Virus record (IMG/VR): IMGVR_UViG_3300032143_000003
Location: 1-44,785 of that record
Direction: 5' to 3' (one strand)
DNA: 44,785 nucleotides
DNA from: a virus
Taxonomy: Duplodnaviria > Caudoviricetes
Shown here: in pieces, positions 1 through 44,785 of the stretch
Numbering within the stretch: position 1 is the stretch's first letter
Layout of the letters: each line of letters starts with the position of its first letter
The notes under the pieces: model-generated
What the model was told of the DNA's origin: nothing
Seen by the model: the letters and a program-made list of their open reading frames with translations, nothing else
Databases searched by the model: none
Program-made: the position numbers and the translations under genes

Positions 1-127
1 CCGCCTCCGCCCGACCCGCCGGGCTTACCGGGCTTTATGTAGCCGCCTCCAGCTCCGCCGCCGATAGCCGTCATCGTGCCGAATACGGAATCTTCCCCGT
101 CATCTCCCCAGCCATACCGGTCCCCTT
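1..127. repeat. Terminal direct repeat (circular assembly overlap), copy 1
   Basis: 1-127 is identical to 44659-44785, and a reading frame runs uninterrupted across the join. Confidence 0.97.
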
Positions 128-1004
128 CTGCGCCGCCTTCGCCACCCTCGCCCACCGTTACGGGGATGCTTCCCGTGGCCGAATAAGCGTCGTCATATAG
201 AAGTCCGCCTCCGCCACCGCCTCCGGCGCAGGTCGCGCCCTCGCCCGGGCCATCGCCTCCGCCACCACCCCCACCAGCAACCACCAGCACCTCGACATCG
301 ACGGAGCCGGACAGAACCTGGAAGGTCCCGCTTTCATAAAACGTATGGATTCGATAACCGCCGACATGCGTTATCACTCCGCCTATCGTGTCCCCCTCGT
401 TGACATAGGCCGCCTGAGCCTCAGCATCCGTCGCATACTCCATGCGTTCGAACCAGAGGTCCCCCGCATCGACCGTGAACTTCGCAGCATACGCTCCGCT
501 ATGGACTTCCGTCTCCTCCCGGCTTATGGATGAGCCGGACGATTCGCTCTTCGTCCAATGCGCAAGCGCCGTCGCGTCCGTCCAGTCTTCCAGGCCGCCG
601 TCGAGTAGCTTCTCAATCTCCGGCTCGAACACCGGGTCCTTGCCGCTCGAGTCCATGCGGTCGCTGAACCCGATGATGAAATAGGCCAGAATGCAAAAGT
701 CATAAACCCCCCCGGTTTGATGCGAAGGGATAACTCCGGTCGAAGTGTGCAAATAAAGCCGTTTATTCTCCAGGTCCATGAAGAAGGTCGAGGCCGTCGC
801 GTCACAATCCGCCGCCGAAAAAACCTCCGCATACTCGGCCCCGGCCTCCAAAACCTCGATGATTTCCCCGTCCGTCATCTCGGCGTAATGGGAGCCGCCC
901 TCGGTCGCCGTCCACTCCAAGCCCTCGACCTCCATCGCCGGATAGTGCTCGCAGACGACCAATCGGCGGGAATCGGGGAGCTCGATCAGATCGGCGAAAT
1001 TCAT
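1..1004 (-). CDS. 5' part of the large tail-tip/host-recognition protein (about 1421 aa, continues at 44658 to 41397)
   Basis: Read by hand: ATG at 1004, just after the upstream stop at 1006, gives MNFADLIELPDSRRLVVCEHYP...VLVVAGGGGGGG...SVFGTMTAIGGG with no stop. In frame with track ORF 41397..44732. Confidence 0.9.
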   Translation of the reverse strand, partial: MNFADLIELPDSRRLVVCEHYPAMEVEGLEWTATEGGSHYAEMTDGEIIEVLEAGAEYAEVFSAADCDATASTFFMDLENKRLYLHTSTGVIPSHQTGGVYDFCILAYFIIGFSDRMDSSGKDPVFEPEIEKLLDGGLEDWTDATALAHWTKSESSGSSISREETEVHSGAYAAKFTVDAGDLWFERMEYATDAEAQAAYVNEGDTIGGVITHVGGYRIHTFYESGTFQVLSGSVDVEVLVVAGGGGGGGDGPGEGATCAGGGGGGGLLYDDAYSATGSIPVTVGEGGEGGAEGDRYGWGDDGEDSVFGTMTAIGGGAGGGYIKPGKPGGSGGG

Positions 1005-1005
1005 G

Positions 1006-1770
1006 CTACATCTCTTCGGCCAAAGTCAGGGCCAAGGTCCAGACATTCAAGTGAATGTGGTCCCACTTCCAGGCCGTGGCAACCACATATTGCGTCGCCT
1101 CGTTCGGGTCGTCCGCTTCCGGATCCTCGCAGAACCAGAATGGGAGCGACCTGCCGACGGCCTGGCGAATTAACTCGAACGCCGCTTTCTCCGATGTCCT
1201 GAACGAATACTGCCACGCCCCCGGCTGGTCCTGGACGACGACCGTTCGCTGTCCGCCCGCGCTTATCGTGATGACGCTCAAATCCTCCGGGGTGAATGCG
1301 CCGCCGTTTCTATAATTCACTTCCGGGGTGAATGCCGGACCGAGAAAAATCGGCCCGACCTCAATGAAGCCGTCCGCGTTCGTGGGGTCCGAAATCAGGA
1401 GCCTCCAATACTGATAAGTCACCGGGGGGTCGAAATATGCGGCCATCAGCCGTTCATTGTTAGGGCTCAGGATTGCCTCGAACCCCGGCTCGTCCCAGGT
1501 ATCCTCATTGTTCCCCTGTATCGTGATCACAGCATCGGCAGAGAAATTATTACCACGAATGCAGAATGCCTCGACGGTGATCTCTGAATAGAAATTACGG
1601 ACAATGGACTGGTCCTCTACGCAGCCGGTTGTCCTCCACCTCCGGCCGGGGATCCGGCGCTGTGTATTTGTCACCGGAAAATTCGTTCCTTCCGAGGATA
1701 CGGTTGTTTCGAAGTCCACTCCCTCGATGCCCTTCCACAAGTTTTCGTATAGGAATTTACAAATTGCCAT
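1006..1770 (-). CDS. Minor tail protein (distal-tail-like, with a discoidin/galactose-binding-like domain)
   Basis: Directly after the tape measure gene; YQYWRLLISDPTNADGFIEVG resembles beta-sandwich tail domains. Confidence 0.6.
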   Translation of the reverse strand: MAICKFLYENLWKGIEGVDFETTVSSEGTNFPVTNTQRRIPGRRWRTTGCVEDQSIVRNFYSEITVEAFCIRGNNFSADAVITIQGNNEDTWDEPGFEAILSPNNERLMAAYFDPPVTYQYWRLLISDPTNADGFIEVGPIFLGPAFTPEVNYRNGGAFTPEDLSVITISAGGQRTVVVQDQPGAWQYSFRTSEKAAFELIRQAVGRSLPFWFCEDPEADDPNEATQYVVATAWKWDHIHLNVWTLALTLAEEM

Positions 1771-1771
1771 G

Positions 1772-3895
1772 TCAGTATGCCCTCACCGCCCGTGGATGAA
1801 TCAGCATGAGTTCCGACCTGCCCCGCTGGCGGATGGTCTTGACGATAAAGTCCTTCATCTCTTTCCCGTCGATATAGAGGTGGATCTCAAGAAAGCCGGG
1901 TCCACTGGCCGTGCCGCCCGGCCCCATGATGGCTTCCCGGAGCTGGCGCGGAGAACTGACAATCTCAGCCTCCCCGCCCTCGGCCACCTCGTATTCCTGA
2001 CCGCTTGCCTGCGACATCAGGAGCGCTCTCTGTTTGAAGATGGCCCCCTTCGCCGCTCCGATCGGTTGGCTCTTGATGAGGGCGATCTGGAAAGCCCCGG
2101 CCGCCGCAACTATGGCCGCAAGGATCGGCCCGAAGATAGCGCCGCCCTGCGCCCAAGCCTTCGTGACGCCCTCAGCCGTGTTGATAATGGCCGTCAAGAT
2201 GGCGATGGCCTTCCGCGCCCGTGCCGCCTTCACCTCTTCCGCCCGGCGCTTCATCTGATACTCGGCTTCCAGGGCCGTGATAGCCTTCTCCTTTTCCTTC
2301 TCGTTCATCTTGCTGTTATTAATCAGTTCGAGCCGATGTTGATATTCCTGGTCCAGCAAAAGCATTCGGTTTGTCGTGCTCTGCGTCATGATAGCGTCAA
2401 TCGCGGCAGTGACGGTCGAGGCAATACCTAGAATTTTTTCGAAGGCTTGCTGATTTGCCGCAACCCATTTGGCGACATTCGTAGTCCACGACTTCGTTAA
2501 TTTCGGCGGCCCAGCCGCCATGTTGGCAATCGCCTTCTTGGCAACCGCCTCCATTTTGTTATAGGCCGGAATGGCCGTGTCGATGATCGTCTCGCCGAAC
2601 GCCCTGAGTGATTTCGTGCTGGCATCCATGCCGATCCTGTATGTTGCCTCACTGATAGCCCCGGCCTTAAACGCTGCCGTCAGCACCTTCTGCTCGTTGA
2701 ACACGGCCGTCATCGCCGCCTTCAGAGGATTGTATTTATTGATGATCTCCTGGACCGCAGCCGCAAGTTTCTTCTTCGCGTCAACCGCTTCCTTCGCCGC
2801 CTTGATCTCCGCCGCCGTCAAGTTATGGACGGCTGTCCCGGTCTGATTGATCTTGGCCGGGGCGCTCACGAACATATCGACGAGGCTCTTGAAGTCCACG
2901 CCGAAGATTTTGAGCATGGGAGCTGCGCCCTTGAAAGCCTTCCCTAATGCATCAGCCGTAATCACCAATCCGGCATTGACTCTTGAGGCATGCTCGAATT
3001 CTGCGGTCTGAATGCGCATCAAGAGTGCCATCAATTTCAAGGCGTCCGAAAATTTACCAATAAATGGCATGGACCGAATGAGGTCATTAAGAAAACGCGC
3101 GAACCCGCCGGAAGCGACGAAATCCGATATCGCCCTATTGAAGGCTACGACAGCTTCTCCAAGTCCCTTGGTCTTAATGATCGCCGTCCCGGCCGCCTCC
3201 TTGACCTCATCCCAGTTATTAGCTAATTGCTTCAGCGCCCCTCCGAAGGTCTCCGTCTCAGCCGTGGAGCGCGAATAGAGTTTATTCAACTGATCGAGGA
3301 GCGACGCCTGCTTCTGTTCCGTCGTCAAGTTCTCGGCGACCCGGATTCCGACACGCCCCAGCGCTCCGTAGTTTCCCTCCATCGCCTTCGTGACCATCAT
3401 GGTCGCGCTGTGAAGGTCTATCCCCATCGTTGAGGCCAGGCCCATCGCGCCCCTCGTCGCCCGGTCAAGTCCCTGCTGATCAAGGCTCGTGAGCTGGAGG
3501 AGCAACGCCTGGCTGGCCATGACCTGCTCATCCGTGTAGGTCGTCGCCCGCATCTGTTCAGCGGCGAACTTCTTATAGTGCTGGATGTTCCCTTCAACAG
3601 TCCGGCCTGTGATCTCTAGGGCGGCCTTCAGATTATTCTCGGCTTGCTCAGCTTCGATGGCGGCCGTAATTGAACTTTCGACAACGCCCTTAAGTGCACC
3701 GATCCCCTTTTGAAGCGCAGAGGCTACGAGCGTCCCGGCAGTAAACTGAGCGAAGAGGCTGCCGAATGGCCCGGACGATCCGCCAGCCTTAGCCGTCGTT
3801 CCGGCGGCCTGATTGATCGCCCCATCCAGGTCTTTGATAGACTTCAAGGCGCCCGTGGCATCCATTTCCACGATATAGCGGACATCTGCGCCCAT
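1772..3895 (-). CDS. Tail tape measure protein
   Basis: 707 aa, Ala/Gly-rich and helical, located after the tail chaperones. Confidence 0.9.
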   Translation of the reverse strand: MGADVRYIVEMDATGALKSIKDLDGAINQAAGTTAKAGGSSGPFGSLFAQFTAGTLVASALQKGIGALKGVVESSITAAIEAEQAENNLKAALEITGRTVEGNIQHYKKFAAEQMRATTYTDEQVMASQALLLQLTSLDQQGLDRATRGAMGLASTMGIDLHSATMMVTKAMEGNYGALGRVGIRVAENLTTEQKQASLLDQLNKLYSRSTAETETFGGALKQLANNWDEVKEAAGTAIIKTKGLGEAVVAFNRAISDFVASGGFARFLNDLIRSMPFIGKFSDALKLMALLMRIQTAEFEHASRVNAGLVITADALGKAFKGAAPMLKIFGVDFKSLVDMFVSAPAKINQTGTAVHNLTAAEIKAAKEAVDAKKKLAAAVQEIINKYNPLKAAMTAVFNEQKVLTAAFKAGAISEATYRIGMDASTKSLRAFGETIIDTAIPAYNKMEAVAKKAIANMAAGPPKLTKSWTTNVAKWVAANQQAFEKILGIASTVTAAIDAIMTQSTTNRMLLLDQEYQHRLELINNSKMNEKEKEKAITALEAEYQMKRRAEEVKAARARKAIAILTAIINTAEGVTKAWAQGGAIFGPILAAIVAAAGAFQIALIKSQPIGAAKGAIFKQRALLMSQASGQEYEVAEGGEAEIVSSPRQLREAIMGPGGTASGPGFLEIHLYIDGKEMKDFIVKTIRQRGRSELMLIHPRAVRAY

Positions 3896-8253: not shown

Positions 8254-8540
8254 AATATCCTCACGGCAATCGCGTCATGGTCGGGCGATGCGTAGATGCT
8301 CCCGTCCGTGGTCGTGACGGTGAACTGGAGCGTATAAAGGACGCCGGACGTTCCCCCTGAAATCATCTGGAGGACTTGCGATCCTGATTTTTCGACATCT
8401 CCATCGAGAAGCAACCCGGCCGGTGAAACGGCCGCCGTCGCTGAAACGATGGTGTTCACAGCATCCACGTCGGGCGGCCAGTAAATGAGGCCGATCTTGA
8501 ATTTCTCGGCAAACGCTTTCTCTATAAAAAACTGTGTCAT
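8250..8540 (-). CDS. Probable fibre adaptor protein (about 96 aa, start MTQFFIEK)
   Basis: ATGA overlap with the fibre gene; ISGGTSGVLYTLQFTVTTTDG is typical of small fibre-adaptor proteins. Confidence 0.55.
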   Translation of the reverse strand: MTQFFIEKAFAEKFKIGLIYWPPDVDAVNTIVSATAAVSPAGLLLDGDVEKSGSQVLQMISGGTSGVLYTLQFTVTTTDGSIYASPDHDAIAVRIL

Positions 8541-11209
8541 TGTCGACCCCCCATGACTCGCACGTCGAATATCCTTTGCCTCGGCTCCACGCTTCGAACC
8601 CCGGCCCTTCGATTCAGGACAACATCCCATGTAACGACCACTCCGGTCTCGTCATACATGAAGAAGGTCGGGATGTCGGCAACCGAAACGGATTCCAAGA
8701 TGTCTATGGCTACCGGCTTGATCGCATCCTTGACCTCGATGGTCTGGCTCTCGGTGGTCTGGACGTTCTCGGTAATCGCACCCGCGAGCGCCCCCACCTG
8801 ACCGGTCGGGACTTCCTCGACCTGAATCGCGCTTGTCGCTTCGGCAAGGACTGCCCCGACTTGTCCAGTTCGAACTTCACTTAGCGCAACGGATTCAGTG
8901 ACGGCCCCGGCAACGGCCCCGACAAGAAGTGTTTGAACCTCAGCTACCGCAACCGGCTCAGAGATCGAGACGAGCCGCGTCTCTCCCCCTAAACCGGAGA
9001 CTATGGGCGCGACCTCGACGACGCTTACCGGTTCGCTGATCGTTGCCTTCGCCGTCCCGATGATCCCCGTCCTGACTTCGGAAATTGAGACCGGCTCGGT
9101 GATCGATGCCTTTGGGCCTTCCGTAACGAGCGTCCGTGCTTCCGCTGTGGTAACGGGCTCGGTAATTGCCTTAATCAGTGCCCCGGAGATCAGCGTTTGC
9201 ACTTCGCCTACCGTTATAGGCTCGGTGATCGCCTTGGCGAGTGCTCCGGTTACCAGCGCTTGCGATTCACCCGTAGTGATGGATTCGCTGATTGACTTGA
9301 CAAGGGTCCCGACGACAAGCGACTGGACCTCTCCCACGGTTACCGGCTCGGCGATTGACTTGAGGAGCGCTCCGGCAATCAGCGTCTGGACTTCGCCGAC
9401 GGTTATTGGTTCGCTGATTGACTTGGCAAGTCCGCCAACGATCTCTGCCGGAACCTCGGCGACGCCGACAGATTCCGAGATCGAGATTATCCGCGTCGGC
9501 TCAGCCTCGCGTTCGACCGTCGGTATCTCCGTCAGCGTGACCGGCTCCGTGATAGCCGCGATGAGCGTAGAGGCTTTTCCCGTTGCGGCTTCTCCGGTGG
9601 TGACGGGTTCGGTGATGCCGATAATCGGCGGGCCGACACCGAGTGTCCGTGCCTCCCCAACCGCGATGGCCTCGATGATTGCGGTATTTGGAATTATTCC
9701 GCCGATGGTCTGTGATTCCCCTACCGTAACACCGTGGACGGCAGATAGAGTTATGGTGTCAAGGACGAGGGTCCGCGCCTCCCCTACCGTGCAAGGTTCC
9801 GTGATGGAAATAGCGAGGGGGGCCAGCGAGACGGTCGGCGGGGACTCCGTGGCGGTGATGGTCTCGACGATAGCCGCCTGTCGATAGATTTGCGGCGTTA
9901 CAACTTCGCCTACCCCGACGGCGAGTACCATAGACAGGGCTAGCGTGCCGAGCAAGCCGCCGATGCTGGCCTCGCCCACCGCAACGGGTTCGGTGATGTT
10001 GATATTCCGGTCGGTGGAGGTGACGTATTTCTTAATGGAGATGTCATCTATATATACCGACTGCGATATGGCGGTCCCACGACGAAACTCAAAGTCATAG
10101 GTCTCGGGACCATCATCGTGACTCGTAAAAGTAATTGAATAGAAACGCCAAACACCGTTGCTTGTTGGTATAGACTGAATCGCGCTGTTAGAAGTCCATG
10201 TTCCATCAAGTTGTAGGTACGCCCCATGGGCACCCGTAACACAAAACGTAAAACCACAGGTTCCTGCTCCGGAGACCTTGTACCAAAAACTCATTACGCA
10301 TGGCGTTGAAATAGGAATGGGTATAGAGTATTGCAATATTGCAACGTGACTATCTGAGCCATCAACATCAAAACGACATGAATAAGACCCGCTTTTTATG
10401 TCAGAAGACTCTCTATTAACGGTCGATGACCCCTCTGGAATTTCCGTCCAGTTGGTGAGGTCGGTGGCACTTGTCCAGGTCTCCATCCCGCCGTCGGTTA
10501 AAACCTCGGTCGGTGTTCCCGCTGGGATGGGCTGAATAACCTGCCGTTCCGTAACGGTAACAGGCTCGGTGATGCTGATGGTGCGGGTTGCAGCGACTTC
10601 CTTGAACGACGCGACGATGGTATTCCAGTCATCCGCCGTCGCCTCCGTCCAGGTCAGGCTCCTGTCCGCCGTATCGGGCGTGATGTAGTATTGAGACCCC
10701 ATTCCGTAAGCAGCAGGGTCGTAGGTGTAGATAACCGTCCCGGTCTGTCCCGACGGAGCGAATGTGTTGTCGCCCGTTCCGATGACCGATACGATGACAT
10801 CTCCCGCCGCAAGCGAGGTCATCGTTGGGCCGCCGGGGTCGGCCGTCGTCCCCGTCGTCTTGGAGCAAGCCCTCAACTGAGAGGTATAACCGGATGCCGC
10901 CTTGAATGAAGCCACGCATCCGAAGATGGTGCGGGTATTGTCGTTCTGAATCTGAACCGTGTAAGAGGAACCCGTTGGCGGGTCGAGCATGTACCAAAGT
11001 TCGTTGAACGTTTCGACGTTGTAGTTCGTATCGCCAGGGGTAAAGGCGACGCCGTTATAAGTCGGCGCACCCCCCGTCCTGAGCGTTGTCCCGGCCCCTA
11101 CGATAAGCAGAACAAGAACGGTTGACCCGCTCCCGCACGTATAGGAGAATTGCGTCGGGTCAGCCGCACCCGTGGTGAACTGCTGTTTGTTATCGTAGGT
11201 GTGGGCCAT
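8537..11209 (-). CDS. Repeat-rich virion fibre/whisker protein with a carbohydrate-binding-like domain
   Basis: 890 aa, about 22 repeats of I(T/S)EP(V/I)xVxE at about 20-aa spacing; CBM-like segment DGGMETW...SGSYS...VYIDDISI. Confidence 0.7.
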   Translation of the reverse strand: MAHTYDNKQQFTTGAADPTQFSYTCGSGSTVLVLLIVGAGTTLRTGGAPTYNGVAFTPGDTNYNVETFNELWYMLDPPTGSSYTVQIQNDNTRTIFGCVASFKAASGYTSQLRACSKTTGTTADPGGPTMTSLAAGDVIVSVIGTGDNTFAPSGQTGTVIYTYDPAAYGMGSQYYITPDTADRSLTWTEATADDWNTIVASFKEVAATRTISITEPVTVTERQVIQPIPAGTPTEVLTDGGMETWTSATDLTNWTEIPEGSSTVNRESSDIKSGSYSCRFDVDGSDSHVAILQYSIPIPISTPCVMSFWYKVSGAGTCGFTFCVTGAHGAYLQLDGTWTSNSAIQSIPTSNGVWRFYSITFTSHDDGPETYDFEFRRGTAISQSVYIDDISIKKYVTSTDRNINITEPVAVGEASIGGLLGTLALSMVLAVGVGEVVTPQIYRQAAIVETITATESPPTVSLAPLAISITEPCTVGEARTLVLDTITLSAVHGVTVGESQTIGGIIPNTAIIEAIAVGEARTLGVGPPIIGITEPVTTGEAATGKASTLIAAITEPVTLTEIPTVEREAEPTRIISISESVGVAEVPAEIVGGLAKSISEPITVGEVQTLIAGALLKSIAEPVTVGEVQSLVVGTLVKSISESITTGESQALVTGALAKAITEPITVGEVQTLISGALIKAITEPVTTAEARTLVTEGPKASITEPVSISEVRTGIIGTAKATISEPVSVVEVAPIVSGLGGETRLVSISEPVAVAEVQTLLVGAVAGAVTESVALSEVRTGQVGAVLAEATSAIQVEEVPTGQVGALAGAITENVQTTESQTIEVKDAIKPVAIDILESVSVADIPTFFMYDETGVVVTWDVVLNRRAGVRSVEPRQRIFDVRVMGGRQ

Positions 11210-12037
11210 TTACTTTTTCTTTTTCATAAACCTGAACTGTTCGCCGCGTGCCGGATACTTAATCCCCGAGCCGTCGATATGCCAGCAGAAGATGTTCGTA
11301 TCGACGAGATACGGATACCGCTGCTCGGCAATCTTGGGCCATCCCGCCTTCTTGATAAGACCGTGCTTCCGCACCCGGTCCAGGAAATCAATGTCCTCCG
11401 TCCCCGTCTGGATATTTATCGTGTGCGTCTCCGGGTCAACGCCGATTCGCGTCGGCGTTTCATAGACCCTGCGAATGTCCTGCCCCGCACACTTATACGG
11501 CTCGCTCTCCTCCCAAATGGCCTCGATGATGGACTTGTGAATCAGCGTGCATCCCATCCCGTGCCCATCCACCCAGACCTTATCGCCCATCTTCCATTTA
11601 GCATAATAGCCGAAGCCCGTCCCCCGGTACATCAACGGCTCGGACGGGACGGACTTTGTGAAATAGAGTCCGGCGACAACCGGGTACTTCTCCTCGACCA
11701 TGTATTCATTGAGCTGGCAAAAGGCCGTAGGTGGAAGCACAACATCATGGTCGATGAAAAGCAGCCAGTCCGTCTTAGCCTTTATGAAGGCATCGACAAC
11801 AAGGTTCCTTGCGTCTGCAACCTGGAATCGTATCGGGGAGTATTGGTCTATCCATTGGATTGTTTCGTGGTGCGACCAGTTGCAGGGAATGACCTGTCCA
11901 TACCGCGCCAGGACCCACTCCGAGCGCAACGTCCCGGTCATGGGGACGCCGATGGTAAGCCTCTGCTGAATCTCACCCATGTTCTCGATGAGGTCGTATC
12001 GACGGTATCCTTTGGTGGTCTTAAATCCTTTGGTCAT
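11210..12037 (-). CDS. Glycosyltransferase (GT-A fold, GT2-like)
   Basis: ARNLVV, WLLFIDHDVVLP (DxD), GMGCTLI and TEDIDF motifs. Confidence 0.8.
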   Translation of the reverse strand: MTKGFKTTKGYRRYDLIENMGEIQQRLTIGVPMTGTLRSEWVLARYGQVIPCNWSHHETIQWIDQYSPIRFQVADARNLVVDAFIKAKTDWLLFIDHDVVLPPTAFCQLNEYMVEEKYPVVAGLYFTKSVPSEPLMYRGTGFGYYAKWKMGDKVWVDGHGMGCTLIHKSIIEAIWEESEPYKCAGQDIRRVYETPTRIGVDPETHTINIQTGTEDIDFLDRVRKHGLIKKAGWPKIAEQRYPYLVDTNIFCWHIDGSGIKYPARGEQFRFMKKKK

Positions 12038-12521
12038 AGACCTGTCCTTCCATGAGCTTTCTGAACACGACCTCCATGACCCCCGTGTCCTGCCAAACGG
12101 GGAACCCCTTCTCTATCAGCCAGGGTTTCGGGTTGTAAATTTGGTAAAGCACGTATCGGGGGTCGAAATACTGCCACGTCTTTTCGTTACATGGATTGCA
12201 GTGCGTCGGGTCTTGGATGTAGAACTGATTCACCCCATACGGATGGACGAATGCCAGCTTCCCCTCCGGCTTTGTGATTCGCCACAGCTCGTCCATGAAC
12301 TGAAGCATCAGCCACGGCTTGATGTGCTCTACGATGTGCGACCCGATAATAGAGAGGCAGATGTTGTCCGGGAAGGGATAGGGAAACTTCTCCAGATCGT
12401 GAACCATATCCACGCCCGGCAGTTTCCGCTTATCCAGGCCGATGAATCCCTGGTTCTTCTTACTCCCGCAGGCAAGGTCAAGTAGAATCCCGCCTTTACG
12501 CTTGAATAGGTCGTTCCGCAT
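12021..12521 (-). CDS. Class I SAM-dependent methyltransferase (Methyltransf_11-like)
   Basis: LLDLACG, HDLEKFPYPF, SHIVEH, ELWRITKPEG, QDPTH. Confidence 0.85.
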   Translation of the reverse strand: MRNDLFKRKGGILLDLACGSKKNQGFIGLDKRKLPGVDMVHDLEKFPYPFPDNICLSIIGSHIVEHIKPWLMLQFMDELWRITKPEGKLAFVHPYGVNQFYIQDPTHCNPCNEKTWQYFDPRYVLYQIYNPKPWLIEKGFPVWQDTGVMEVVFRKLMEGQVYDQRI

Positions 12522-37820: not shown

Positions 37821-38867
37821 TTATGGTTTATAGTTCTTCGGCCATGCCCCAAATTTTATACGATATGCTCCAGAAATTGCTCTAATCGTCGCGGCCTGGC
37901 AAACATCGTTGGGCGGATAGAAGCCGGGGAGATGCTCGAAACTAATGAGGCGTGGACGGCCCGATGCACTTGACGGGTAATGGTCAAGGATGTATTTTGC
38001 CCTTGCTCCCCACTCCACCGCCGATGGTCTGGCCCTCTTGTCCCGCTTATCACACAGGGACTTCCCGCCGTAGAAACCATCGTCAGAATACATCTTGCGA
38101 TTCGGCTTGTTTCCCCAGACCGGAAGCGACACCGCAAATGGATATCCGTGATCCTCCATAATCATGTCACGAGAAGCCTTCATCCCGAACTGGTCCTCGA
38201 CAAGATGGCGAACCTGATCTTGAACTGAGTCCGTAGGCCCTATCTTCGTCGTCGCGCCGTAGGTCGTTCGGTTTGGATCAATTAAACCCCTCTTCATATA
38301 TGGGATAATGATCCGCTTAAAGAAATCAGGATATGCCAGGTTTTCAGCTTCATTCAGCCCCCAGATGATGTCAAGGTTTTTCCGCTTGGCACGAACGATC
38401 CAGGTGGAAATCCATGCCTTCGTATATTTATCGGCATCTTTTTCATAGAATGATGTTATTCTCTGCACGTTGGAATACCAGGGCGACCACTTCCTGTATC
38501 CACCGTGAAATTGGCAGTTATCGAAAAGGTCAAAGAGGACCGTCATCCCCTCTTCGTTGATGATGGAAAACGCCTTCTCGACTATGGGGAAATAGTGCGT
38601 ATTGAATTTGCCAAGGTCCCACTTGTCACCGGACAGGACGTAGGGCTGGAACTGATATGTCTTCTTCTGCCCTGGATGCGATCCCCAAACGCCATAGGCA
38701 AGGGCTCGAATGAAGTTTCCTCCCGCTTCTTTTATTTTCTTGACGTGCGCTCCAAGGGCATCGGCATCAAAGGACCACTTCGTACCATTGAATGTAACGA
38801 ACCTCGCGTCGTCCTGGAGGAGCCCCATCAGGCCGTAACCGATACCGCACTTGTCATCTTGGAACAT
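37821..38867 (-). CDS. Putative glycoside hydrolase-like TIM-barrel protein (start MFQDD)
   Basis: AGGNFIR, WDL.KFN..YF, GMTVLFDLFD and WGLNE resemble clan GH-A; GGAGG RBS. Confidence 0.5.
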   Translation of the reverse strand: MFQDDKCGIGYGLMGLLQDDARFVTFNGTKWSFDADALGAHVKKIKEAGGNFIRALAYGVWGSHPGQKKTYQFQPYVLSGDKWDLGKFNTHYFPIVEKAFSIINEEGMTVLFDLFDNCQFHGGYRKWSPWYSNVQRITSFYEKDADKYTKAWISTWIVRAKRKNLDIIWGLNEAENLAYPDFFKRIIIPYMKRGLIDPNRTTYGATTKIGPTDSVQDQVRHLVEDQFGMKASRDMIMEDHGYPFAVSLPVWGNKPNRKMYSDDGFYGGKSLCDKRDKRARPSAVEWGARAKYILDHYPSSASGRPRLISFEHLPGFYPPNDVCQAATIRAISGAYRIKFGAWPKNYKP

Positions 38868-38875
38868 CTTTCCTC

Positions 38876-39286
38876 CTAAACGCTGCAATAGGCGACCTTG
38901 CAGATGGAAGTGTTTTTATCTGACTTGTGTTCAATTTTCAGGCTGATGTTGAAATTCCAAATGCCCCCGTATGCAATATCGCCAGAATATGACGCTAGCT
39001 TATTTCTCACATCCGCCAAGACAACGGTTCCGTCCACGGTGACTTGCAAATCATGATAACCAGTGGCGCTACCGTTTATCAGAAAAATCTGTGCCTGCCC
39101 GGAATGTGTCGCCGCGATATTGAGGACGGTTTCATAAGCCCCCCCGCCGCTGTGCGTGTGCGATGCAGCAGTTGTATAAACCATATTCCCTCCGCCCTCC
39201 GCCGCTGCCGCCTTAGCAGCCAGAGCTTCCAGACGTAGATTAATCTGCCGCAGGGCGGCCTCGTATTCTTTTTTATCCGCCCACAT
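38876..39286 (-). CDS. Small virion/tail-associated protein
   Basis: N-terminal coiled coil, Ala/Gly linker, beta-rich C-terminal domain. Confidence 0.5.
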   Translation of the reverse strand: MWADKKEYEAALRQINLRLEALAAKAAAAEGGGNMVYTTAASHTHSGGGAYETVLNIAATHSGQAQIFLINGSATGYHDLQVTVDGTVVLADVRNKLASYSGDIAYGGIWNFNISLKIEHKSDKNTSICKVAYCSV

Positions 39287-40157
39287 CTTGGCCCTCCTCG
39301 AATGGGAACTCGATCCCCCTCACGCCCTCCCGCGGCCGGAATTCAGGCTCGCTCACGACCTCGACGACATACCGCTCAACCGCCGGAACCGAGGGTACAA
39401 TCAAATAAAATATCGGTGTCCTCACAACCGCGACGCCATGATAGACATCCCAGCTCATCGGCATGGAAAGCAGACCGCCTAAAAGTTTCGTTAGATTTGG
39501 ATCGGTCGCCTTAGCGAGTTTCATTCTCTCTGTTGCAACGGCAATCGTCTCTTGGCAGTCGAGAGCATGGGGAATATGGAATCCGACCCGAAGACCTGCA
39601 TAGCGCAAGACCGGATTCGCAAATGGATGGCTCTCGACCCTTATGTGCCTTTCCCCGATAATCGTATGCTTTGAGTTCAAGGCCGCCTGCCAGACCGGAT
39701 CAAAATATCCTTTGGCCCAGGTCTCGCAGAAGAACGTCCGGCAGCATTTCGGGAATCCCAGGAGTTCACCCTGCACGTCATTATCTCCCTTCTCGAAGGA
39801 CGACTTGAATCGCAGGGTATCCTTGAGCGTCCGGGATACGATGACGCAAAGGCTCGCCCTTTCCCCGGGCCGCGGCTCCTCATGCCTATGAGCGAACCCC
39901 GTAAAGTTTCGGACCCGCTTGATCGGCAGGCTGACCAGGCCCATCTCCGCCCATGCTGCCGCAAGCCTCGGGAATTGATCTTCGCCGATTGTCTGCCAAG
40001 CGCAGGGCCGCTGCCAACGTGCTACGCTCAAGACCTCAAGGTCCGATACCATCGCGCCGAGCTTAGGAAAGATGGGAGCCCAGACCCGTCGAGCCTCTTC
40101 ACTCAACCAGACCGTCCGACACGACGGCGCTAAGTCAAGTCCCTCCATCAATTTCAT
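39273..40157 (-). CDS. Radical-SAM-associated Cys/His-motif protein (DUF483-like), start MKLMEG
   Basis: GELLGFPKCCRTFF and FHIPHALDC; ATG 1 nt after the rSAM stop. Family name recalled from memory. Confidence 0.65.
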   Translation of the reverse strand: MKLMEGLDLAPSCRTVWLSEEARRVWAPIFPKLGAMVSDLEVLSVARWQRPCAWQTIGEDQFPRLAAAWAEMGLVSLPIKRVRNFTGFAHRHEEPRPGERASLCVIVSRTLKDTLRFKSSFEKGDNDVQGELLGFPKCCRTFFCETWAKGYFDPVWQAALNSKHTIIGERHIRVESHPFANPVLRYAGLRVGFHIPHALDCQETIAVATERMKLAKATDPNLTKLLGGLLSMPMSWDVYHGVAVVRTPIFYLIVPSVPAVERYVVEVVSEPEFRPREGVRGIEFPFEEGQDVGG

Positions 40158-40158
40158 A

Positions 40159-41397
40159 TCAAACATCGGTATGATCTCCGTGTGGCTTGTCCCCGTGCTC
40201 GTCGCCGTGCGCATCGCCGTGGCCGGAGCCTCCGGCCCATCTCCGCGTCCGATCACACGATTCCTTAAGCGCAATGTCCGGCATGATCCCCTTGAGCCGA
40301 GTGCGCACGTGCTGGAAAAGTGTCTTATACGCTTCGCAGAATCGGGTCCGGTTCCGCCAGTCATTATCGATTCCCGAGCCGGGACACCCGCCGCCGCATA
40401 AGCCCCAGAACTCGCATCCCTTACAGCCGCCGAGTTCCCGGGGGATCATCGCCAAGGCGTGAACCCTTTCCGCACCGGGCTCCTCTGCGGCAAGCGCCTG
40501 AATCCCGTCCAGGGCCGCCCCGCCTTTGAGACAGACGCCGATGGCTCCGTCCTCCATGATGGCCGTTTCGGCTTGGGTCCGCCAGATGTCGCATCCGTTG
40601 AACGTGCAGGTCGAATCCCCGCCATCGACCAGCATCTTTACGACGTCCCGGTAAGGATACCAGGCCCGGCCGGGATCCGCGAAGCAAAGGTCCGCGAGAT
40701 AGACGAAAGCCCGGCCGAGTTCGGTAGGCGTCAGTTCTTCGTCCCCGAATTCGTCCTCGAAAACGATAACCTCGTTTGTCCGAATCGACGTGACGCCCAT
40801 CGCTTCGAGCCGCAGCAGGAACCTCTTAAGTTCCGGGAGTCGGTCCGGGGTCGCGTTGTATCGCCTGAGAACCACGATGGCCGAGACGCACAGCCCGGCC
40901 GCCCGGGCCCGCTTCATATTTGTCAACGTTACTCGAGTCCCCGTTTTCTCCATTTCCTTCAACGCTTCACGGATCAGCGGAGCATCCTTGAGGCGTGGAA
41001 TTTGATCAATGTCATTCCAGCGGCCTTGATTCAATTCCACCGTGTCACCGTCGATTGAAACCCCGACCCCGACGTTAAACTCCTTGAACATCGCCAGATG
41101 ATCATCTGATATCAAGAGGCCATTCGTCTGTATGGAGGACCGGCCATAAAGCTCATGCATCGTCTTAAGAATCGTCCGCAAGTCCGCCAACGGGAACATC
41201 AGCGGCTCCCCGCCGTGGACGCAGGGGACCGAATACTTCCGCCTATTCTCCGGCGTCTCTTTCGCGGCCTCCCGCCGAAGCGTCGCCAGCATGGCTACGA
41301 GGTTATAGCCGGTCCGGCCTTGCGTCTTCCGGATTCGCCGCTCATAGCATGACCGACATAGGCCGTTACAATCCATTAGCTTGAAATGTAGTCCCAT
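40159..41397 (-). CDS. Radical SAM/SPASM-domain protein (anSME/peptide-maturase-like) with a C-terminal HxD tail
   Basis: CNGLCRSC (Cx3Cx2C), HGGEP, IQTNG, VSIDG; SPASM CTFNGC...GAIGVC...CKGCEFWGLCGGGC...C. Confidence 0.95.
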   Translation of the reverse strand: MGLHFKLMDCNGLCRSCYERRIRKTQGRTGYNLVAMLATLRREAAKETPENRRKYSVPCVHGGEPLMFPLADLRTILKTMHELYGRSSIQTNGLLISDDHLAMFKEFNVGVGVSIDGDTVELNQGRWNDIDQIPRLKDAPLIREALKEMEKTGTRVTLTNMKRARAAGLCVSAIVVLRRYNATPDRLPELKRFLLRLEAMGVTSIRTNEVIVFEDEFGDEELTPTELGRAFVYLADLCFADPGRAWYPYRDVVKMLVDGGDSTCTFNGCDIWRTQAETAIMEDGAIGVCLKGGAALDGIQALAAEEPGAERVHALAMIPRELGGCKGCEFWGLCGGGCPGSGIDNDWRNRTRFCEAYKTLFQHVRTRLKGIMPDIALKESCDRTRRWAGGSGHGDAHGDEHGDKPHGDHTDV

Positions 41398-44300
41398 TAA
41401 TACTCCGAGTCTCCGTGAGCGATATTTCCGTGATCATTTACATGCGCGACGTCCTCGTGAATCACGTCCTCGTGGGCCGTATCGTCGTGGCCTCCGTCTG
41501 CGTGATAATCCCGATATGCCCGATCATAGTGCCTATCTTCGGGGGGGACATCCGTATGAGTATCCCCGTGGTTATTTGTATGGACATCCGTGTGGGAAGT
41601 GTTCGCATGGACGTCGGTATGGCGGGAATCCACGTAGGCGGTATTCGTGTGGCTGAGGTCCTCGTGGGGGCTGTTTTCATGGGGGACGTCCACGTAGGCG
41701 GAATCCCCGTGAGGCGTATCCGAATGGGAGTCCCTATGGGAATCATTATAAGAATCCCCGTGGGAATCGCGATAAGGAAGTCCTGTGTCGTCATCCACGT
41801 GGATGTCCTTATAGAAATCCTGGTGGGCCATATCCGAATGGGAATCGACATGAGGCGAATCCGAGTGGCCCGCCCCGTCCGTATGGGGGATATCCTCGTG
41901 GGGGTTATCCGAATGGCCGGCGTTCCCGTGGGCCGTATCCGTGTATGCGGCATCCCCGTGGGTGTCCGTGTGTTCAATATCTGTGTGGGCATCGTTGTGG
42001 ACATCGACATGAGCGTGATCATCATAGGGGTTATCGCTATAACTGTTGGAATGGACGACATCGGCATGCTTGTCGCCGTGATCCCCGTCACCATGCTCAT
42101 CCACGTGAAGGACATCCGTATGGCTGTCGCTGTGGGTGTCCACATGGGAGATGTTATTGTGCATCGCGCCCGTGCTCTGAATGTCCAGGACGGCCTCGAC
42201 TTCGACGGTCGCCGGCCCGGCGTTCTTGACCAGCGTCAGCGCCCGATAGACTTCTTCGGCAAGGATGGTCTGGGTGACGCCTTCGCCGTCTCGGATAGAT
42301 TTGGACACGAAGATTTTCTCGGCCGGCCGATGGCCCAGTAGCAAAGCCGGGACGGTCCCCAATACTCGCTTCTCCGGCGAACGGATGATGTTCAGATAAA
42401 ACTGTCCCAGCGTCGCCGAATCGGAAGCGACCGTCAGTAAGGTCTCTTTCTCTAAAATTTCCGCTTGGTCATAGCGATACCCGATATTCGCATCCGTCAC
42501 CTTTTCCGCCAGCCAGTTCTTAGTCGTGGGATCCTGGCCGTATTTTATGATCACGGTCTTTCGGACCGGGGCCGTGTCATACCTCAGGGCGAATGATGCG
42601 AAGTCATGTTGGTCGATGCGGACTTCGCTCCCCGTCGTCCCGACCGCATAACGGAACGCGCCGAAGGTCCTGTTGGCGAGCGGAATGAGATGAAACACGT
42701 TCGAGTCCTGGATTTTCCGAACGAAATCCAGCACCGGGGCTTGGTCCGTCAGGTAGGCGGCCAACGGCTGAATCCGGTTGGCCTGAAGGTCCAGAAACGA
42801 TACCAAGTCAATCTGGCTTTTCGGGATGGCAGGCGAGTTGAACGTCGTCAGGGCCGCGAATAAAATGTCCGCGCCGACGGCGCTGTAGGTCCCGTCCTGG
42901 ATTTTGCACTTGGCGCCCTTCGCCTTGCAGGTGATGACGCCGTTCTCCGGGTCCGCGACGAGCGTGAATTCCCCGTTGGCCAGGTCAACCGTATAGTCCG
43001 TGGTCAGGGTGAGCGTGACGCCATCCTTGTAGACCGCGCTGATCTCCTCAAGTTCATGGCCCGCAATCTTATATTTCCAGATCGTCGTGTCGATACAGAT
43101 AGGCGTGATGTTGTCGAGCTCGCCAAAAAGGATTGGGATAGCCCTCGCCTTCTTTACCTCTTCCGGGTCCATGTTCGGATAGGTCGTCAGATCAAAGAGG
43201 ACTGACGGGATGGACCCGAATAGCCCCTCCCGCGCGTCCACGACCTCGAAGGTCGCCTCCCGGTCCGTTACGACCGGACGACTCGTCCGGCCCCAGAAGA
43301 GCGTCCCGAGTTCCGAATAATCCGAGTCGATGGCCCCGGCCTTCAGCCAGAACTTCTTCAGGTGCCAGATATAATCGACGAGTGCTTCATACCACCAGCC
43401 GTCATTCCCGTATCGGATTTCTCCCGCAGAGAACACGACATCCCCGATGTAATAATCCCCGACGCTCTGTGTGATTTGCGGCGCTCCACCCTGCGGGATA
43501 ATGGCCCGGTAGGGCATAGGCTTCAGAATTCTGATGAGTGAACAGTCATCCAAGTAAAAACTATAAACCTCGCCCCGGTCCACTGTCCCCGTCTTGACGA
43601 TGAACTTATAATTCGAATAACCATCATCTGCCGGGAAGTCGACTGCAACTTCGGTCCAGCCCGCGCTCGTGATGCCCGAGGCCTCATTGTAAGTTTCCGC
43701 GCCCCACGTTTCGGCTGTGGCGTTATACCAGACATTCCCGGCGCTATCCTGGATGCCCCACTTTACCATCACGCCCGGCGAGGCGACCGTGCTTTTCAGC
43801 CGGAACCTCGATCGGCATTTGCACTCCGGCCGTAGGATGATCCCGGTTTGAGAAAGGGAAAGCGCTCCGGTATGGGCCGACGGAAGATACATCTTGTCGA
43901 TATAAAACGTATTGGCCGCACCCGCATTGACGACCGTAATGATGATTGTATCTATCGCGTCCTTGTTCGCGTTCGAGACGCCGGAGATGTCCCAGGTGAT
44001 GGTCTGCCAGGTATCGGCCGCGACGATGTTCGGCGTCGTCTCCGTCGTCGTCCCGCCGCTGTCGTGGATTCCGACCTTGATATTCGAGCCGGTCCGCGAG
44101 GCCCGGATATCGAATTTGATGGTGTTGATGTCCGTCAGATTAATGGGCGTTGAAATCGTCCGGATCAGGGTCTTGTTCAGGCTCGTCGCGATGAGCGCGA
44201 CGCCTTTTAAGGAATAATCGCCCTCTTGCTTGATGGCGGCTTCCGAATAGGACTCCAAAGACGGGATATCCGCGATCCGGATGATGACGATGCCCTTGCC

Positions 44301-44785
44301 GCCCTTGCCGCCTGCGCCATCCCTCCTCGCTCCGCCGCCTCCGCCGCCCGTGTTGGGTGTCCCGGAGTTAGCCGCTCCCGTCGATGCACTACCGTTGCCT
44401 CCACCGCCGAGGCCGCCAAGTCCGGCCGTGACCTTCGCTCCTCCGCCTCCGCCTCCGCTATAATAAGAGCCGAAATACTCCAGGCCGTCGCCGCCCTTGC
44501 CGCCTATCGAGGGCTCTACCCCATCAGCCCCGGCTTCGTCAGCTCCGCCTCCGCCGCCACCGGCGTAATAGGCGTGGGTATTTGCCGGCTCGGAATCCCC
44601 GCCATCGTGGCCCTGACCCACCGTGCCGACACCGCCGGCCGCGCTTTCTTTCAGACCGCCGCCTCCGCCCGACCCGCCGGGCTTACCGGGCTTTATGTAG
44701 CCGCCTCCAGCTCCGCCGCCGATAGCCGTCATCGTGCCGAATACGGAATCTTCCCCGTCATCTCCCCAGCCATACCGGTCCCCTT
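41397..44785 (-). CDS. 3' part of the large tail-tip protein: Gly-rich domain, CBM-like domains, tail-hub-like region, C-terminal [H/Y]x[D/N] repeats
   Basis: Track ORF of 1111 aa continues the frame from 1004; AIPILFGE hub-like motif; located after the distal-tail-like gene. Confidence 0.9.
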   Translation of the reverse strand, partial: GDRYGWGDDGEDSVFGTMTAIGGGAGGGYIKPGKPGGSGGGGGLKESAAGGVGTVGQGHDGGDSEPANTHAYYAGGGGGGADEAGADGVEPSIGGKGGDGLEYFGSYYSGGGGGGAKVTAGLGGLGGGGNGSASTGAANSGTPNTGGGGGGARRDGAGGKGGKGIVIIRIADIPSLESYSEAAIKQEGDYSLKGVALIATSLNKTLIRTISTPINLTDINTIKFDIRASRTGSNIKVGIHDSGGTTTETTPNIVAADTWQTITWDISGVSNANKDAIDTIIITVVNAGAANTFYIDKMYLPSAHTGALSLSQTGIILRPECKCRSRFRLKSTVASPGVMVKWGIQDSAGNVWYNATAETWGAETYNEASGITSAGWTEVAVDFPADDGYSNYKFIVKTGTVDRGEVYSFYLDDCSLIRILKPMPYRAIIPQGGAPQITQSVGDYYIGDVVFSAGEIRYGNDGWWYEALVDYIWHLKKFWLKAGAIDSDYSELGTLFWGRTSRPVVTDREATFEVVDAREGLFGSIPSVLFDLTTYPNMDPEEVKKARAIPILFGELDNITPICIDTTIWKYKIAGHELEEISAVYKDGVTLTLTTDYTVDLANGEFTLVADPENGVITCKAKGAKCKIQDGTYSAVGADILFAALTTFNSPAIPKSQIDLVSFLDLQANRIQPLAAYLTDQAPVLDFVRKIQDSNVFHLIPLANRTFGAFRYAVGTTGSEVRIDQHDFASFALRYDTAPVRKTVIIKYGQDPTTKNWLAEKVTDANIGYRYDQAEILEKETLLTVASDSATLGQFYLNIIRSPEKRVLGTVPALLLGHRPAEKIFVSKSIRDGEGVTQTILAEEVYRALTLVKNAGPATVEVEAVLDIQSTGAMHNNISHVDTHSDSHTDVLHVDEHGDGDHGDKHADVVHSNSYSDNPYDDHAHVDVHNDAHTDIEHTDTHGDAAYTDTAHGNAGHSDNPHEDIPHTDGAGHSDSPHVDSHSDMAHQDFYKDIHVDDDTGLPYRDSHGDSYNDSHRDSHSDTPHGDSAYVDVPHENSPHEDLSHTNTAYVDSRHTDVHANTSHTDVHTNNHGDTHTDVPPEDRHYDRAYRDYHADGGHDDTAHEDVIHEDVAHVNDHGNIAHGDSEY
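41400..42161 (-). repeat. Coding repeat region with about 53 [H/Y]-x-[D/N] motifs
   Basis: HVDTHSDSHTDVLHVDEHGDGDHGDKHAD...HEDVIHEDVAHVNDHGNIAHGDSEY; hand count 44 His-type and 9 Tyr-type. Confidence 0.95.
44659..44785. repeat. Terminal direct repeat (circular assembly overlap), copy 2
   Basis: Identical to 1-127. Confidence 0.97.

Follow-up and report, generated by a model that had tools for sequence, protein, structure and literature searches.

Aromatic-x-Asp/Asn arrays on predicted viral tail proteins occur with a radical SAM/SPASM enzyme and its DUF483-like partner

An array-bearing tail protein and its two linked genes

A stretch of 44,785 nucleotides (the window) from a tailed virus (Duplodnaviria; Caudoviricetes; IMG/VR record IMGVR_UViG_3300032143_000003, positions 1 to 44,785) encodes on its minus strand a tail protein ending in an array of [H/Y]-x-[D/N] motifs, a radical S-adenosylmethionine (rSAM) enzyme with a SPASM domain, and a partner related to DUF483. 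The array, the enzyme's predicted substrate, occupies 41397..42164 (-). Its 255 residues, the last of the tail protein, hold 53 motifs (35 HxD, 9 HxN, 9 YxD and 0 YxN), in agreement with an earlier note on this DNA that had put about 53 motifs in about 255 C-terminal residues; 2,000 shuffles of the array averaged 14.7 motifs (standard deviation 2.9) and reached at most 25. A motif included 44 of the 45 His residues, the spacing was 4 or 5 in 49/52 intervals, and the remaining 873 in-window residues of the tail protein contained 7 motifs. One 12-bp two-copy tandem was the sole repeat in the array DNA, and this near-absence of tandems indicates that the pattern is maintained at the protein level. 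An origin by chance or by DNA slippage was ruled out by the shuffles and by the lack of tandem structure. No match to the array was found in Pfam, NCBIfam or PHROGs.

The enzyme (412 aa; 40159..41397, -) has no N-terminal recognition element (RRE) of the kind associated with peptides made on ribosomes and then post-translationally modified (RiPPs), and it passes the Pfam cut-off for PF04055 Radical_SAM. The Cx3Cx2C at residue 10 and the complete SPASM Cys set described earlier were both borne out. C10, C14 and C17 (41347..41370, -) are invariant in the family alignment of 116 members (29% identity and up), and the eight Cys of the SPASM domain (residues 264, 269, 289, 325, 328, 334, 338 and 354; domain at 40336..40608, -), each invariant in 116/116, align with those of anSME (PDB 4K36). 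R126, N181, R311 and R348 are likewise invariant, and the Arg residues among them could bind Asp carboxylates. The HGGEP reported alongside is present at residue 61, but its His is less than 85% conserved across the family (FGGE in the Thermus phages Cumys and phiLo), and the motif was dropped as a family diagnostic because this His is variable. The enzyme also carries a C-terminal tail of its own with five Hx[D] motifs, mostly HGD (40165..40221, -). At least two such motifs follow the last Cys in 105/116 aligned enzymes, and at least three lie in the last 70 residues of 101/120 homologues among the matches listed. LAGLIDADG/intein insertions were seen in the rSAMs of three loci (L190:3662-6178, L038:5867-7921 and L329:9979-12303).

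The three genes are tightly packed. Re-reading the junction coordinates upheld the TAATG overlap claimed at 41399-41395, with the tail-protein stop TAA at 41399-41397 and the enzyme ATG at 41397-41395. The gene with Cys/His motifs that was said to follow directly does so, the enzyme's TGA ending at 40159 and the partner ATG lying at 40157 (an alternative in-frame ATG is at 40166).

The partner (294 aa; 39273..40157, -) was characterized through conservation, a structure model and gene fusions. Residues C138, C139, C201, E41 and D153 are invariant in 103/103 members, H194 is kept in 97/103 and position 197 is Cys or His; these conserved Cys, His and acidic residues suggest a metal site. Weak matches to PF04467 (DUF483), with E up to 0.1, came from 44 of the 61 homologues of the partner, and ESM Atlas also points to DUF483; the window's own partner had no Pfam, NCBIfam or PHROG match. 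Its structure model (pLDDT 95) gave no Foldseek match at E up to 0.001 and no clear relative among solved structures (VIA), where 2guk was best (Z 8.3, root-mean-square deviation 3.0, 104 aligned) and 4r29 reached Z 5.6 (deviation 2.5, 97 aligned); these two fold matches, which cover residues ~31-151, were not used as evidence for function. The partner family comprises 774 clusters at 50% identity (E up to 1e-30). Among 18 long homologues, two are fused to PqqD/RRE (P0314, P0337), two to the present rSAM family (P0331, P0292), three contain inteins, two a glycosyltransferase and most others a methyltransferase, and the PqqD/RRE fusion ties the partner family to peptide or protein modification. 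LAGLIDADG/intein insertions occur in the DUF483-like partners P0284, P0293 and P0315. The partner is fused to a GT2 glycosyltransferase at L177:6101-7864, L178:6152-7870, L011, L012 and L017, and a second array gene lies downstream at L017 and L177.

The phage genome is circular, with a 127-bp repeat at the window termini, so the tail protein has 1,421 aa and its gene starts at window position 1004, spanning the repeat; the gene is intact in L001 and L002. The C-terminal 1,128 aa, hub/Tal-like, lie at 41397..44785 (-), and the N-terminal part, a Gly-rich domain with PHROG tail-fibre matches, at 3..1004 (-). Within the C-terminal part, ahead of the array, a hub domain (42165..43574, -) has relatives with an HxD array, a Cys array or none; its ESM Atlas neighbours are viral, with PF13550 Phage-tail_3 in 26% of one set's members. 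Directly upstream of the tail protein is a gene of 254 aa in the Dit position (1006-1770, -), preceded by the tape measure gene (1772-3895, -), a context block of 1006..3895 (-). These two genes, the PHROG matches and the viral and PF13550 hub neighbours lead us to infer a place at the tail tip of the virion for the carrier.

Linkage of array, enzyme and partner across viral loci

Enzyme-, partner- and array-first scans were pooled, yielding 193 enzyme matches in 121 clusters (90% identity). Array and partner were both present in 70/70 clusters in which the enzyme was well flanked (at least 3 kb upstream and at least 2 kb downstream), and in 34/34 when the enzyme-first loci were taken alone. 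When at least 300 nt upstream sufficed, the array was found in 97/100 clusters. The partner was present in 112/113 clusters, and the array gene lay within 25 nt of the enzyme in 70/101. The array-first scan found the enzyme in 20 of 23 full-flank loci with an open reading frame of at least 8 motifs; the other 56 of 79 full-flank loci had no such frame and were set aside as chance matches, both counts applying to the matches listed, and 45 unflanked loci (L122-L167) fell outside the count. Of the three loci without the enzyme, two were artefacts, L082 lying antisense to a gene for pentapeptide repeats and L091 consisting of simple-repeat sequence, and the third, L078, is a genuine exception.

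Scans starting from the carriers gave the same picture. The enzyme lay beside 7/7 HxD hubs and 0/56 complete array-less hubs, although many of the latter (L337-L384) are close kin, so that the 56 are not all independent cases, and 13 of the 56 had less than 2 kb downstream; 10/79 loci had no hub match and 3 hubs were cut. Starting from the GSxW domain found on other carriers, the enzyme was present in 18/18 loci with arrays and 0/2 without (1 cut). In a set of 50,697 phage records, matches to the enzyme, to the partner and to the array were in each case confined to the Thermus phages phiLo, phiMa and Cumys, and a haloarchaeal provirus-like region (L429) holds the complete trio after a baseplate gene. 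Altogether the trio occurs at about a hundred loci of bacterial and archaeal viruses.

A few observations run against this linkage, besides the kinship of the array-less hubs. A 13-motif HxD array at L078:7815-8912 has no family enzyme in its 78-kb, 41% complete record. On the Halorussus aquaticus plasmid L430 (4272-6477), enzyme and partner lie in surroundings that are not those of a phage; the replicon gave no triple-motif array match, and the enzyme lacks the HGD tail. No array was found in the DNA examined of L027 and L251, and L184 has only a partner fragment. Enzyme and array occurring independently of each other was the outcome that the earlier note had named as telling against its proposal; the survey, made from five directions, found them together with these few exceptions. 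The trio is a real, widespread and tightly linked viral system. At L192:5156-10700, two family rSAMs without the HxD tail flank one partner, and the array is Asn-rich (HxN). The L078 array protein also has a short collagen-like stretch. Upstream of a locus with a 127-motif array, two genes (L034:206-1988) are present that we take to be a four-helix (Avd-like) gene and a reverse transcriptase, resembling a diversity-generating retroelement.

These data bear on the function already proposed for the genes. A three-gene rSAM module was reported in the Thermus phages Cumys and phiMa, and DNA modification was suggested; the same paper describes DUF483-methyltransferase fusions and cyanobacterial homologues near deazapurine genes (PMC11437467, available part). 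The occurrence of the pair without an array on L430 would also suit an enzyme and DUF483 partner that modify phage DNA. This function sits poorly with a late tail-operon location with overlapping stop and start, the 70/70 association with protein arrays, the HGD tail that the enzyme itself bears, the PqqD/RRE fusions of the partner and the absence of the enzyme beside array-less hubs, and it is the least probable of the explanations considered here.

Arrays were found on window-type hubs, on a second hub type (some with Laminin G), on small proteins with three GSxW(I/V)EG repeats and on fibre anchors. The carriers are mutually unrelated, no leader shared among them was seen, and array-less homologues of the window's hub end where the array would start. 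By these comparisons of sequence the array is a portable module on several unrelated carriers. The Cumys carrier comes after baseplate, tail-collar and anchor genes. In phiLo the baseplate wedge genes are followed by three carriers, which bear 58, 104 and 75 Hx[D/N] motifs. In phiLo (L308:7782-8911) the rSAM and partner adjoin IS605 transposase pieces and face the carriers, and part of the array is 45-57% identical to phiMa and Cumys, a hint of exchange between phages that are not related. Genes upstream of GSxW carriers (L193:4412-4885, L199:4281-4763, L307:7625-7918 and L429:1956-3572) end in LPVG(T/V)D(K/R)(W/Y/F), a sequence that also precedes the GSxW domain in the fused forms L203 and L210, suggesting a docking pair. 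An AlphaFold2 model of the L094 carrier folded the GSxW domain and left the array without secondary structure at pLDDT ~49 (a weak result, from a monomer and 21 sequences); the model had no clear solved fold (best Z 3.5) and one 342-aa match in BFVD, and profiles A3 and A4 returned no useful solved structure.

The carriers also speak to where the array would act. Some array proteins are nearly all array (L024, 173 aa), and characterized triceptides are released by proteolysis (PMC12912966, available part), as would be expected if the array were cleaved off as a free RiPP that acts away from the particle in metal sequestration or anti-defence. That outcome is very improbable given the fusion of arrays to hubs, to fibre anchors and to further tail proteins; moreover, in the 32 largest unannotated neighbour clusters (70 loci), where the partner, carriers and apparently structural genes recur, no recurrent protease or transporter stood out.

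At three loci (L326:1723-7066, L328:6816-12239 and L329:4389-12303) a related hub, 39% identical over 465 aa at L328, carries a Cys-rich array at the same junction. Downstream are a free Cys-array gene and a different rSAM/SPASM enzyme, with no DUF483 partner. The Cx3D form holds 62/80 Asp of these arrays. The enzyme, which has N-terminal Cys repeats of its own, scored best with the model of PapB, which forms CXXXD thioethers (PMC12373016, available part), at 203-230 bits where the cut-off is 340. On one carrier, the enzyme family thus changes with the type of motif, and among the indirect evidence for an enzyme-substrate relation this is the strongest. In a hub tree of 29 rows the Cys hubs form one clade (100/99), so the swap counts as a single event; the fork with the HxD hubs was not resolved, and hence no order of events is claimed.

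Elsewhere in the window, Pfam and PHROG scans of the genome identified terminase, portal, protease, HK97-type capsid, tape measure and integrase genes. A 348-aa protein (37821-38867, -) with weak GH5/apiosidase matches is in a lysis-gene position after the module, and distant versions take its place in close relatives. GT2-like glycosyltransferase and methyltransferase-like genes (11210-12521, -) lie within the structural region, and an 890-aa MAM-domain protein (8537-11209) comes after them. The enzyme's closest cellular relatives are in a Candidatus Aminicenantes metagenome-assembled genome (71% identity; L040), making this group a possible host.

Predicted chemistry and its competitors

To describe the motif, 73 non-redundant arrays were compared. 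Asp or Asn stands at +2 of 2,741/2,880 His (0.95, a figure that arises partly by construction), 281/543 Tyr (0.52), 66/166 Phe (0.40) and 44/117 Trp (0.38), and after 4-13% of non-aromatic residues, including Arg (4/89) and Gln (19/333), the codons of which are one step from those of His. Position 1 is taken by His, Tyr, Trp or Phe, Pro at the middle position X2 is nearly absent (2/3,132), and His is followed at +2 by His in 25/2,880 cases (1 in the window's array) and by Ser in 6/2,880. HxH variants are present in a few arrays (8 in L011).

The array could instead be an unmodified metal-binding fibre like the T4 gp37 needle, with enzyme and partner loading the metal or serving another end. 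Both His and Asp can act as ligands of metals, iron is bound by HxH motifs in tail fibres (PMC11705849, available part), and the few HxH variants would fit. The exchange of His for Trp, Phe and Tyr and not for Arg or Gln, together with the rarity of His at +2, argues against such a fibre. It would have no need of an rSAM, yet arrays almost never occur without one, and the Cys array is paired with a different, motif-matched enzyme. The AlphaFold2 array without secondary structure (weak, as above) points the same way, and we consider a metal fibre improbable.

The array is in all probability the substrate of the adjacent rSAM, as the earlier note had proposed for the repeat and as the near-obligate linkage and the Cys-array swap now support. 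Motif form and weak family similarity make aromatic-to-Asp/Asn cyclophane crosslinks the likeliest chemistry, by a modest preference, and with the array granted as substrate this chemistry becomes slightly more credible. Enzyme and partner thus likely cross-link the triplets that end the predicted tail-tip protein. In the proposed reaction the 5'-deoxyadenosyl radical would take a C-beta hydrogen from Asp or Asn, and the C-beta radical would add to His C2 or Tyr C3 with a loss of 2 Da per motif, as in triceptides, linking each aromatic ring with the C-beta of the amino acid at +2. The partner would be a metal-binding helper that presents the substrate or runs a second step. The array would stay part of the particle and form, at the tip of the tail, an acidic and stiff poly-cyclophane extension for host contact or stability. 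The rigid, protease-resistant or metal-binding fibre that the earlier note envisaged is likewise a conjecture.

The nearest characterized enzymes are anSME and the cyclophane synthases ChlB and YhhB. In a PDB search the single sequence found ChlB best (E 7e-7); with the family profile, anSME came first, over its full length (E 5e-23), followed by ChlB.

Several points weigh against cyclophane formation, in addition to the constructed part of the His figure. The family profile fits anSME better than ChlB, and the enzyme falls far below every NCBIfam family cut-off (bits/cut-off: YhhB 71/445, anSME 64/349, FxsB 50/370, AmcB 48/425, GrrM/OscB 41/310 and XyeB 27/450). In the available parts of the triceptide literature compared, there is no His-x-Asp cyclophane and no triceptide synthase described with a DUF483 partner, the latter pointing to an additional or another chemistry. 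In print, a single His-x-X protein matured by an rSAM was found, HxsA, which gains 8 Da and does not lose 2 Da (PMC13128918, available part). Stacking of aromatic rings, in a fibre that folds by itself, could likewise favour His, Tyr, Trp and Phe.

It is conceivable, though less likely, that the array is a substrate for some other chemistry, such as an N- or O-linked ring, desaturation, epimerization or a two-step change of Asp or His by the partner together with its fused methyltransferase or glycosyltransferase. The near-constant partner (112/113 clusters), with its invariant Cys and His and its inteins, looks as expected of an enzyme, and the HXS system gives +8 Da on an SHRSS motif (PMC13128918). 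Arrays at the 33 loci with methyltransferase-extended partners (L193-L225 and similar) are near-pure HxD, with 2% Tyr and 1.6% Asn compared with 16% and 21% at 55 other loci, a comparison confounded by kinship. Conversely, an aromatic-x-D/N motif in which His, Tyr, Trp and Phe interchange fits the triceptide definition, and the Cys swap is likewise aimed at the Asp C-beta. Two fully ligated auxiliary clusters also suit an oxidative reaction.

Returning to cyclophane formation, chemistry so far known from peptide natural products likely acts here on a predicted virus-particle protein. If this is true, it would be rSAM crosslinking of a protein of the virus particle, with many more crosslinks per chain than the few in known triceptides; DUF483 would gain a function and the published DNA-modification guess would be corrected. 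More broadly, we hold in even balance the proposition that tailed viruses of bacteria and archaea use RiPP-type rSAMs for virion building, with portable C-terminal arrays, borne by hubs, fibre anchors or adaptor domains, stapled at dozens to more than 100 sites into a poly-cyclophane polymer at the tip of the tail. One and the same hub would then support two or more chemistries (His/Tyr-x-Asp cyclophanes and Cys-x3-Asp thioethers), and the enzymes would carry their own target motif. The system is testable in cultured phages, since Thermus thermophilus HB8 supports growth of phiMa, Cumys and phiLo. Protein engineering would gain a useful tool from a leader-free enzyme, with thermostable versions, that could staple His/Tyr-x-Asp tags on carriers unrelated to each other.

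Comparison with known systems

In the open literature (subscription journals lay mostly outside the search), nothing was found on a virion protein modified by an rSAM, and the available part of PMC11118758 has nothing on an array-enzyme-partner system. The novelty suggested earlier would thus hold for a modified virion protein and not for the genes, all three of which already appear in PMC11437467 with DNA modification proposed.

T4 gp37-type iron needles likewise have an array of His-rich motifs, borne by a protein of the tail tip or fibre; theirs is repeated HxH, and the window's array is HxD/N. To our knowledge, no maturase is known for such needles. The HXS system (HxsABCD) resembles the present one in rSAM maturation of a repeated His-x-X protein with a dedicated partner. 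It differs in being a bacterial defence system with paired HxsB/HxsC rSAMs plus HxsD, five basic HxS repeats and a +8 Da product, whereas the window has one rSAM, acidic HxD/N arrays without HxS repeats, and a place on the virus side. Hxs models were outside the best 25 of 40 NCBIfam matches of the enzyme, and none listed neared its cut-off.

Two further enzyme families share features with the system. PapB/PapA ranthipeptide enzymes, the best model for the Cys-array enzyme, target the carbon next to the Asp carboxylate; the window enzyme scores 35 bits against PapB. All eight auxiliary Cys are shared with anSME (4K36), whose YPCD after the third SPASM Cys, with an Asp that we take to be catalytic, is replaced by VCLK in the window enzyme, which scores far below the anSME cut-off.

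The triceptide synthases compared (ChlB, YhhB, HaaB, HtkB, MicB, XyeB/XncB, GrrM/OscB and FxsB) share with the window an RRE-less rSAM/SPASM enzyme and adjacent aromatic-X-X motifs that include His and Tyr. They are nearest by hidden Markov model (YhhB) and by single-sequence PDB search (ChlB), yet the window enzyme lies far below their cut-offs. Rings from His C2 to C-beta are known for HTK, HAA and HNR motifs, the native motif of ChlB being YDR (PMC11499958, available part), and both Tyr-C3 and His-C2 links were shown in minviopeptin (PMC12912966). Triceptides have few motifs on a short leader-core precursor; here tens to more than 100 motifs lie on a large structural protein, the window's array ending a tail protein of 1,421 aa. 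The window system is further set apart by its obligate DUF483 partner, by the motif on the enzyme itself and by being viral.

The closest match is the Thermus phage module, in which Cumys_13/12/11, phiMa_29/28/27 and phiLo_135-137/141/142 represent the same three genes (rSAM, DUF483-domain protein and third gene). Relative to the window, the module's rSAM is 35% and its partner 34-36% identical. The third gene is called unknown in the available part of PMC11437467, which mentions neither a repeat nor a tail link; in Cumys_13, 54/54 His belong to Hx[D/N] motifs. The two settings differ in the carrier: in the window a siphovirus-type hub bears the array, in Cumys and phiMa a small protein with the GSxW domain, encoded behind baseplate and fibre-anchor genes.

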